From assembly GCF_003334315.1 (NCBI RefSeq), contig NZ_QOWR01000098.1: a stretch of 5,044 nucleotides of DNA. One strand, 5' to 3'. Both the position numbers and the translations under genes were made by a program. Under the pieces are notes generated by a model, which was not told the origin of the DNA, searched no databases, and was given only the letters and a program-made list of their open reading frames with translations. Below are positions 18 through 623 of this stretch, piece by piece. Source of the stretch: Escherichia coli. Its GTDB lineage: Bacteria; Pseudomonadota; Gammaproteobacteria; Enterobacterales; Enterobacteriaceae. Positions within the stretch are counted from its first letter, which is position 1. The number at the start of each line of letters is the position of its first letter.

Positions 18-623
18 TTACCCCCTGGATCTGATTTCAGGCGTTGGGTGTGGATCACTATTGCACCGTTCGTGACAACCAAGATTGACGGTCTGAACAT
101 CCCCTGCCTGGTTCGTGGCGTTTTTTACGCCATGGACCATAGTGTTTTGATCTTCTTGATCTGTATCTTTATCTGTATCTTTATCTGTCGTGACTCGTCG
201 TGACATGTGCGTGACATTTCGTGACGCGCCGTGACAATCGCCATTTTGTTCCCGCTTTCTTTCCCTCTCTCGCTGCGCCCTCTTGCGCTCTGCAGGAGAT
301 TTTGCGGTTTGCGAAATATTGCCGTTGTCCTCTTTAAGCACCTGGCGTTTTTCCCATCCAGTGATTAAATCACCATCAAGTACCCGCCCCTGCATCGTCT
401 GCAAAATTGAATCAATTACCTCTTCTGTCACGTCGAGCGCACTTGCCAAATCTTCTGTCGTGACATCAATGTGACCTCGCGTGACATTTCGTGACGCGCT
501 CACCAGGAGGTGGATATACACTGCCATCACTGTTGCAATTGGCTGTCCTGACACCCTGGCAATTGTTCGCCACTTAGGGTCATTTGGCATGTCATGCCAT
601 AATCTGAGCCAGGCGTTAGCCAT
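18..623 (-). CDS. Putative prophage replication initiator / replisome organiser, at the position occupied by ydaU downstream of ydaS-ydaT; carries internal iteron arrays
   Basis: Minus-strand ORF ending at TAA 18-20. The ORF track starts at GTG 629, but ATG at 623-621 sits about 5 nt after an AGAGGTG Shine-Dalgarno, so I prefer 623. The peptide motif SRNVT occurs twice because a 21-bp DNA repeat lies inside the ORF, and a [10 protein letters not shown] stretch is encoded by a 12-bp tandem repeat. Function is inferred from synteny and the lambda O/ori analogy, not from a recognised domain. Confidence 0.55.
159..188. repeat. 12-bp tandem repeat atctgtatcttt, about 2.5 copies, beside the iteron array
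   Basis: Units at 159-170 and 171-182 are identical, with a partial third copy from 183. On the minus strand this encodes the [10 protein letters not shown] low-complexity segment. Confidence 0.8.
188..235. repeat. Iteron array 1: five direct (C/G)GTGAC repeats at about one helical turn spacing
   Basis: GTGAC begins at 190, 200, 211, 221 and 231 (spacing 10, 11, 10, 10 bp), all in the same orientation. The array includes the 21-mer gcgtgacatttcgtgacgcgc at 209-229. Confidence 0.8.
458..499. repeat. Iteron array 2: four direct GTGAC repeats at 10-11 bp spacing, including an exact copy of the 21-mer
   Basis: GTGAC begins at 460, 471, 481 and 491. The 21-mer gcgtgacatttcgtgacgcgc at 479-499 is identical to 209-229, 270 bp away. 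An inverted GTGAC copy lies at 427-431. Confidence 0.8.

Follow-up and report, generated by a model that had tools for sequence, protein, structure and literature searches.

The window analysed here is a 5,044-nucleotide stretch of Escherichia coli DNA (contig NZ_QOWR01000098.1 of assembly GCF_003334315.1). Near its left end lies the 5′ part of a prophage replication gene, in which a short repeat recurs about once per helical turn in two separate arrays. An earlier note, made from the letters of the window alone, had put these arrays forward as a candidate prophage origin lying inside the gene of its own initiator. The gene, its repeats and the case for such an origin are the subject of this analysis.

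The initiator gene and its repeats

The locus holds the features listed below; the coding strand of the gene is the minus strand throughout.

78..623, minus strand: putative replisome-organizer-type initiator gene, 5′ part (codons 1 to ~182), with the winged-helix N-domain, a basic linker and the start of the C-terminal region
189..235, minus strand: linker iteron array and candidate primary site of initiator binding, with GTCACG repeated five times on the coding strand at 10-11 bp spacing
459..495, minus strand: upstream iteron array, four GTCAC cores (plus-strand positions 459, 470, 480 and 490), within the coding sequence of the N-domain
427..432, plus strand: single inverted core, GTCACG on the plus strand and CGTGAC on the minus strand, 27 bp from the upstream array
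209..229, minus strand: exact 21-bp unit, copy 1, two iterons (10+11 bp) in 7 codons, encoding ASRNVT
479..499, minus strand: exact 21-bp unit, copy 2, the same two-iteron 21-mer as at 209..229
140..188, minus strand: AT-rich tract, candidate DNA unwinding element, purine-rich on the coding strand and holding a 12-bp repeat
~154-189: 12-bp repeat in three copies, coding-strand unit ACAGATAAAGAT (Tandem Repeats Finder: 2.9 copies, 154-188)
109..139, no strand: 13-pair palindrome beyond the AT-rich tract, on the side away from the iterons
1..77, no strand: terminus of IS100 (IS21 family), which truncates the initiator gene; the open reading frame at 18..77 is read-through into the insertion sequence

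The 203-residue open reading frame at 18..629 on the minus strand is not intact. Its true start is the ATG at 623, and IS100 cuts the initiator after codon ~182, with loss of the C-terminal half. From position 78 on, the window is 99.8% identical to genomes with an intact coding sequence, which in these relatives spans 1071 bp and encodes 356 amino acids. The "18..623 protein" that the earlier note treated as a unit is therefore a truncated fusion, its end being IS100 read-through at 18-77.

Annotations of the intact coding sequence vary between "hypothetical protein", "DNA-binding protein" and "phage replisome organizer". The intact protein is a member of phrog_3729, "replication initiation protein" (E 3.7e-257). 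In its N-terminal part it matches PHROG "replisome organizer" families (E 4.9e-6 and 2.2e-4), and residues 122-356 match a "DnaD-like helicase loader" PHROG. The N-domain (residues ~1-100) has a winged-helix fold like that of the N-terminal domain of DnaD, and the N-domain of phiEf11, a member of PF09681, shares 21% identity and the invariant residues with the window protein. When solved structures were searched by sequence, nothing was returned for the N-domain, and the sole match was to the last 24 residues, which resemble the C-terminus of DnaT. Neither of two Pfam scans of the protein gave a match to Phage_rep_O, nor did these scans match the window protein to DUF1376. As judged by these sequence comparisons, the gene is a replisome-organizer-type initiator and a homologue of neither YdaU nor lambda O. 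The earlier note had placed the gene at the ydaU position; YdaU of K-12 is a DUF1376 protein, so the gene that fills this slot in the window is a replacement and no orthologue. The initiator gene is followed by a DUF977/Ren-like gene both in the intact E. coli prophage and in the completely sequenced phage Tritos (OV696610, initiator gene at 32105-33175), and no helicase or loader gene is annotated downstream in either. In the window, IS100 forms the DNA downstream of the gene. An origin assay supplied with the "downstream replication genes", as the earlier note had proposed, would thus find no helicase or loader gene there in the intact relatives.

Direct reading and a pattern search place CGTGAC on the plus strand at 189, 199, 210, 220 and 230 and again at 459, 480 and 490. 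The copy at 470-475 reads TGTGAC and keeps GTGAC. Core spacings are 10, 11, 10 and 10 bp in the 189-235 array and 11, 10 and 10 bp in the 459-495 array. The five plus four phased GTGAC copies described earlier are thereby confirmed in both position and spacing; the proposed (C/G)GTGAC consensus fits the cores generally and fails at 470-475. CGTGAC occurs 10 times across the window, where 2.0 copies would be expected, a count that no dinucleotide shuffle out of 200 attained. The 21-mer GCGTGACATTTCGTGACGCGC is perfect at both of its sites, as had been claimed, with a chance expectation of 0. At 187-236, Tandem Repeats Finder detects 4.9 copies of a unit with a period of 10 bp. The translation of the window reading frame contains SRNVT twice, together with the 10-residue stretch that the earlier note had listed beside it among the forced amino-acid repeats. 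The inverted core at 427-432 is ~90% conserved in 17 homologues, the third position of its valine codon included. A further CGTGAC at 71-76 was ruled out as an array member; it lies within the IS100 end and is unrelated. A sigma-70-like promoter at 211-238, inside the linker array, was disregarded (2 matches in total against 2.9 expected), and Rfam at gathering thresholds gave no match in the window.

The surroundings of the two arrays differ. GC content falls to 0.30-0.35 across 121-180, against ~0.5 in the surroundings, and together with the Tandem Repeats Finder result this upholds the 12-bp tandem repeat and AT-rich stretch reported beside the linker array; the upstream array has no AT-rich neighbour in the window. 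The palindrome at 109-139 folds as DNA with -10.9 kcal/mol (z -4.8).

Conservation of the arrays and selection on the DNA

On the coding strand, the cores begin at gene nucleotides 129, 139, 149 and 160 and at 389, 399, 409, 420 and 430, and they fall in all three codon phases. The 10-11 bp period is no multiple of 3, and an amino-acid repeat can therefore not be its source. Synonymous sites were compared among 17 homologues of the GTCAC class (59-87% amino-acid identity to the query), which comprise two phages in addition to bacterial loci of Escherichia, Rahnella, Serratia, Bordetella, Pseudomonas, Gilvimarinus, Chromobacterium and others. Where the third base of a codon lies in a core, the consensus codon is used at a frequency of 0.98, compared with 0.58 for the 94 other codons (Mann-Whitney p 1e-5). 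The spacer bases and the residues they encode vary, as in SRNVT, SQGVT and SQSVT, or HIDVT, HVTVT and HADVT.

Arrangement was assessed over a wider range of hosts. A scan of viral contigs yielded 80 loci, all of them ~100% identical and from E. coli, and was replaced by tblastn on phages and by a scan of one genome per species, which gave 57 loci (53 usable; first 700 nucleotides of the gene). A chain was defined as at least 3 copies of one 5-mer at 9-12 bp spacing. At least one phased chain is present in 43 of the 53 loci, and 29 carry the same 5-mer in two chains, at gene nucleotides ~75-160 and ~330-430. Two chains of the same 5-mer appeared in 0 of 2120 codon-shuffled controls, whose largest chain total was 3. 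Phage Tritos has no phased GTCAC chains other than these two arrays anywhere in its complete 46-kb genome. The repeats are under selection at the DNA level; the check suggested beforehand, whether phasing and core are conserved among homologues beyond what coding needs, was run and is answered in the affirmative by both comparisons.

The core differs by clade, yet it is common to both arrays of any one element. The classes and the groups in which they occur are:

GTCAC: Enterobacterales, Pseudomonas, Bordetella, Lysobacter
GAACGC: Janthinobacterium, Variovorax, Sphingobium, Rhodoferax
GCAAC: Cupriavidus, Ralstonia phage Firinga
GTGAC: two Pseudomonas loci

All classes have (A/C)ACG in common. 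The encoded loop tracks the core: it reads NVT where the core is GTCAC, NAT where it is GAACGC and DAT where it is GCAAC. This indicates that the DNA drives the peptide and not the reverse. No simple code linking residues to cores was found: the helix-turn-helix regions of loci L131 (GTCAC) and L127 (GAACGC) are very similar, and phylogeny confounds the comparison.

The AT-rich tract is conserved along with the linker array. On the coding strand, a purine-strand AT-rich tract of the GATAAAGA, CAGATA or AGAGAAG kind (for example ACAGATAAAGATAAAGA..., CAGATACAGATACAGATA... and AGAGAAGAGAAG...) comes immediately after the linker array in nearly all homologues. This tract is 60-82% AT in about three quarters of the listed loci, against 31-57% for the whole gene. 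Short GC-rich hairpins recur beyond it: over the 80 nucleotides past the tract, the mean fold z is -1.54, compared with -0.53 in a control segment of the same genes (p 7e-4). Counting the stems of conserved palindromes gave a small excess only (6.5 against 5.5 pairs), the folding z-score test being the clearer of the two. The signal for a conserved hairpin at this place is modest.

The linker array occupies its gene position in 43 of the 53 species-level homologues and in Gram-positive relatives too, and of the two arrays it alone is universal in the family. The upstream array is more variable. In most loci it is encoded at the loop of residues 43-56, and in the structure model of the E. coli protein it is predicted to encode the loop that joins helices 29-45 and 56-63. 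The 43-56 loop is enlarged by a 6-residue insertion in Firinga and Cupriavidus, and an enlarged loop is found in locus L128 as well. In the Lysobacter-type loci L129 and L134, an upstream GTCAC array lies in another loop, between the first two helices (gene nucleotides 75-104), where their close relative L131 has two inverted CGTGAC copies (gene nucleotides ~70-95). A locus from Escherichia albertii (L092) has six upstream iterons instead of four (gene nucleotides 129-181), by way of a 21-nucleotide, 7-codon insertion. Since a 10+11 bp pair of iterons makes 21 bp, or 7 codons, the arrays can grow in frame. The distance between the two arrays ranges from 211 to 317 bp among homologues, with no evident helical register. 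The second array is confined to the proteobacterial branch and seems to have been gained more than once independently.

One further sequence was met in these searches. A metagenome-assembled genome labelled Collinsella sp. (L091, JAIJJM010000125.1) encodes an N-terminal region of 165 amino acids that matches the initiator of the E. coli prophage at 99% identity; this contig probably entered the assembly as a binning contaminant.

A probable origin inside its own initiator gene: model, precedents and rivals

Window positions 109-495 are probably the origin of a lambdoid (Rac/Qin-like) prophage, placed inside its own initiator gene, with 109-235 as the core origin and 427-495 as an auxiliary initiator-binding block. 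The winged-helix N-domain would bind the 6-bp GTCACG cores, and the spacing of one core per helical turn would set the protomers along a single face of the helix. With its five copies, the linker array (189-235) may nucleate the complex beside the strand-asymmetric AT-rich tract (140-188), which would melt, with the palindrome (109-139) bounding the melted tract. The DnaD/DnaT-like C-terminal half, with its DnaT-like PPGFRG tail, is expected to recruit host DnaB-DnaC, since neither a helicase nor a loader is encoded by intact phages of this type. The upstream array (459-495) and the inverted copy (427-432) would serve as a second block for the same protein, most likely in cooperation with the linker array, the intervening ~225 bp being looped out.

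The distribution of the module is in line with this model. The linker array, the AT-rich tract and the N-domain stay together across differing helicase-recruitment contexts: in Aeromonas phage pAEv1818 the downstream gene encodes a DnaC-like loader, in Pseudomonas phage Marin a primase/helicase and in Ralstonia phage Firinga a DnaB-like helicase. The one partner that never changes is the N-domain. The isolated phages Tritos, Evi and vB_EcoS-689R5 carry the N-terminal region at 99-100% amino-acid identity, which suggests that the module works.

The closest precedents come from Gram-positive phages, whose initiators have a remotely homologous N-domain and likewise keep the origin in the low-complexity linker of the initiator gene. 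The genes of phiEf11, phi11, phi105, A500 and IPP21 each contain one linker array of 3-5 cores, GTAACG-type or GTCACG, 10-12 bp apart, followed by a purine-strand AT-rich tract of the GATAAAGA or AGAAGA type. In Bacillus phage phi105 (L151) the array, at gene nucleotides ~411-449, has the same GTCACG core as the E. coli prophage. None of these five genes has an array in the N-domain, and the second array belongs to the proteobacterial branch. The Gram-positive initiators also differ in that the window-type initiator has a DnaT-like C-terminal half and, in the E. coli phages, no helicase or loader gene downstream. In SPP1, gp38 binds direct repeats together with an AT-rich unwinding element inside gene 38, and oriL-driven theta replication has been reconstituted in vitro (PMC6316719). 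The second binding region of SPP1, oriR, lies ~13 kb away, compared with ~225 bp in the window. Deletion of ORF20 of 80alpha, a G38P homologue, could not be complemented in trans (PMC5499656), which suggests that the origin is embedded in the gene. Similarly, Rep2009 of Tuc2009 and ORF13 of TP901-1 bind direct repeats in their own genes, which act as the origin (PMC8965321). As a relative, TP901-1 ORF13 was rejected (hhalign probability 1.2%, no phased 5-mer chains), and it stands as an analogue only.

The likeness to lambda is one of layout. As in lambda O, P22 and gene 18 of phage L, the origin in the window would lie within the initiator gene, between a DNA-binding N-domain and a helicase-recruiting C-terminal domain. 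Lambda has iterons joined to an AT-rich tract inside the initiator gene (PMC3349717), and the origin of phage L was itself inferred from repeats inside gene 18 (PMC8022706); drawing an origin from in-gene repeats is standard practice for lambdoid phages. The genomic slot agrees as well: the gene follows cro and cII in the rightward early operon. The window has the order of ori-lambda as well: iterons, AT-rich tract, palindrome. In lambda, too, a palindrome stands beyond the AT-rich region of ori. The initiator, however, has no sequence relationship to lambda O. Lambda has four iterons of ~18 bp in a single block, whereas the window has 6-bp cores at every helical turn in two blocks, and phages of the window type lack a P-type loader. 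The lambda O/ori arrangement invoked by the earlier note therefore stands for the in-gene position and the adjoining AT-rich tract, and falls for homology, iteron size and the one-block design.

Rac of K-12 is a prophage of the same type, with the gene in the same slot after ydaS-ydaT, and an active origin, oriJ, has been reported for it (PMC3945230). It differs in that the slot holds the DUF1376 protein YdaU, followed by the DnaC-like YdaV. Within ydaU of K-12 Rac (L006, 4472-4563), 14-nucleotide direct repeats of the AAGCAGATGTTCAA type are spaced 33, 33 and 12 bp apart, with a fifth copy at 4261-4274, 211 bp upstream. These AAGCAGATGTTCAA-type repeats may be the iterons of oriJ.

Two separate sets of one initiator-binding repeat are familiar from the iteron plasmids P1, F and R6K and from ori/crr of phage P4, where they flank the initiator coding sequence and suggest that one set is looped to, or handcuffed with, the other. 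In the plasmids, iterons measure 17-22 bp, are about two helical turns apart and are intergenic, and the Rep proteins are of another family.

Other readings concern the part played by the second block. Tentatively, the origin could be a two-part one, in which the second block has been written at least three times into different surface loops of the protein's own DNA-binding domain, with the same core, and in which both blocks are needed for a looped complex that fires or directs replication. It is also conceivable, though rather unlikely, that only 109-235 is the origin and that the same initiator binds 427-495 as an element of negative control or switching. Such an element might be a handcuffing or titration site, an autoregulatory roadblock to transcription, or a fork barrier that restricts theta replication to one direction and sets off the change to the rolling-circle mode, as has been proposed for gp38 at SPP1 oriR. 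A control site would agree with the AT-rich tract adjoining the linker array only, with an inter-array distance that follows no evident helical register, and with Gram-positive relatives and ~45% of proteobacterial homologues that manage with the linker array alone. SPP1 offers the precedent of a second initiator-binding site with a role in fork stalling (PMC6316719; PMC5499656). The repeated, independent gain of the upstream array does not decide the matter, as it speaks for an advantage that fits activation and control alike.

Two other explanations would remove the arrays from replication altogether. Their position in the early rightward operon, just downstream of regulators, would suit binding by another factor (a host protein, the cII-like YdaT, the Cro-like YdaS or the DUF977/Ren-like protein) in transcription control, partition or exclusion. 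This is very improbable: the neighbouring genes change wholly among the E. coli, Pseudomonas, Aeromonas, Ralstonia and Gram-positive phages while the arrays stay in the N-domain and linker, a core that differs between clades is a poor fit to a conserved host factor, and the layout agrees with the experimentally defined in-gene origins of the wider family. It is scarcely credible that the repeats have no function in cis and arose passively, from repetition in the protein (SRNVT; TDKD) or from slippage within a low-complexity linker. The 21-bp unit is indeed in frame and encodes ASRNVT twice, and the linker is of low complexity. Against this, a period that is no multiple of 3 puts the cores in every codon phase, synonymous sites are frozen in the cores while the spacers and their residues vary, the peptide follows the DNA core across clades, and codon-shuffled controls never yield two arrays.

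Several observations weigh against an origin at 109-495, or against the part assigned to its second block. DnaA boxes (TTWTNCACA, one mismatch) show no enrichment in the window, with 9 matches against 11.8 expected. The searchable literature has no report of binding or origin activity for this initiator or its proteobacterial relatives. The match to Pfam PF09681 (Phage_rep_org_N) is end-to-end (model positions 1-119 of 121) but sub-threshold (E 0.067-0.24), and that to TIGR01714, at 15.4 bits, is below the curated family cut-off of 49.8. The synonymous-site and hairpin statistics are uncorrected for sequence relatedness. Gene conversion between the two arrays, in place of selection for a common binding protein, could account for part of their co-variation, as the exact 21-mer hints. 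A clear upstream array is lacking in ~45% of homologues and is therefore not essential for the family. Finally, the initiator is truncated here, so the element is probably inactive in the window. The reading of phased iterons beside an AT-rich segment in an initiator gene as an origin, which the earlier note had put forward, is strengthened by the comparative test and the Gram-positive precedents. The two arrays are not equivalent: 189-235 alone stands with the AT-rich tract.

An origin inside a replisome-organizer gene is already known as a kind of element. The searchable literature, with older subscription literature outside it, contains no account of the E. coli or proteobacterial version, of its cores, of a DnaT-like initiator without an adjacent helicase or loader gene, or of a co-varying second array. 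The module is widespread: of 5426 complete E. coli genomes, 1648 have a site covering at least 80% of window positions 1-700, which span the 5′ part of the gene, and the initiator gene is also found in several isolated coliphages. The analysis provides a base-level map of a candidate origin, with its cores, unwinding tract and palindrome, and the natural specificity classes GTCAC, GAACGC and GCAAC are suited to swap tests. The DnaT-like tail, together with the lack of a helicase or loader gene in intact phages, suggests a route to the recruitment of host DnaB-DnaC. The locus is also a case of dual coding, in which iteron DNA sets the sequence of a loop in the protein presumed to read that same DNA. 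Should the two-part origin prove true, the 21-bp, 7-codon unit of two iterons would be a module for frame-safe origin growth, and the N-domain would offer a clear case of a protein loop shaped mainly by the DNA signal for the encoded protein. For annotation, genes in the ydaU position of Rac-like prophages are not all orthologues.

State of this prophage copy and neighbouring features

The left end of the window was assigned to IS100 because positions 1-77 match many chromosomal and plasmid sites at 97-100% and because, in genome L002, this piece adjoins the start of istA in an annotated IS100. The replication module at this locus is disabled by that insertion. The origin DNA in the window is intact, and it could fire only with an intact initiator supplied in trans.

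At the other end, at window positions ~4842-5044, an IS1 end interrupts recT; the best genome match free of the insertion sequence stops at 4841, and IS1 is annotated under the matches. With an IS100 end on one side and an IS1 end on the other, the window is a fragment of a Rac-like prophage bracketed by two insertion sequences. Within it, recE (3094-4188) is reduced to roughly the C-terminal exonuclease part, the K-12 recE measuring 2.6 kb, and matching genomes span 7.4-9.1 kb for the 5-kb window. DNA between sieB and the 3′ part of recE therefore seems to have been deleted.

Repeated motifs also flank the RacR-like repressor gene. They are of the TACCCATAGGTA / TACCTATGGGTA kind, lie at 1409-1490 and 1948-1984, and include a 16-pair inverted repeat at 1948-1984. 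These TACCCATAGGTA / TACCTATGGGTA-like motifs are probably the operators of the immunity switch.

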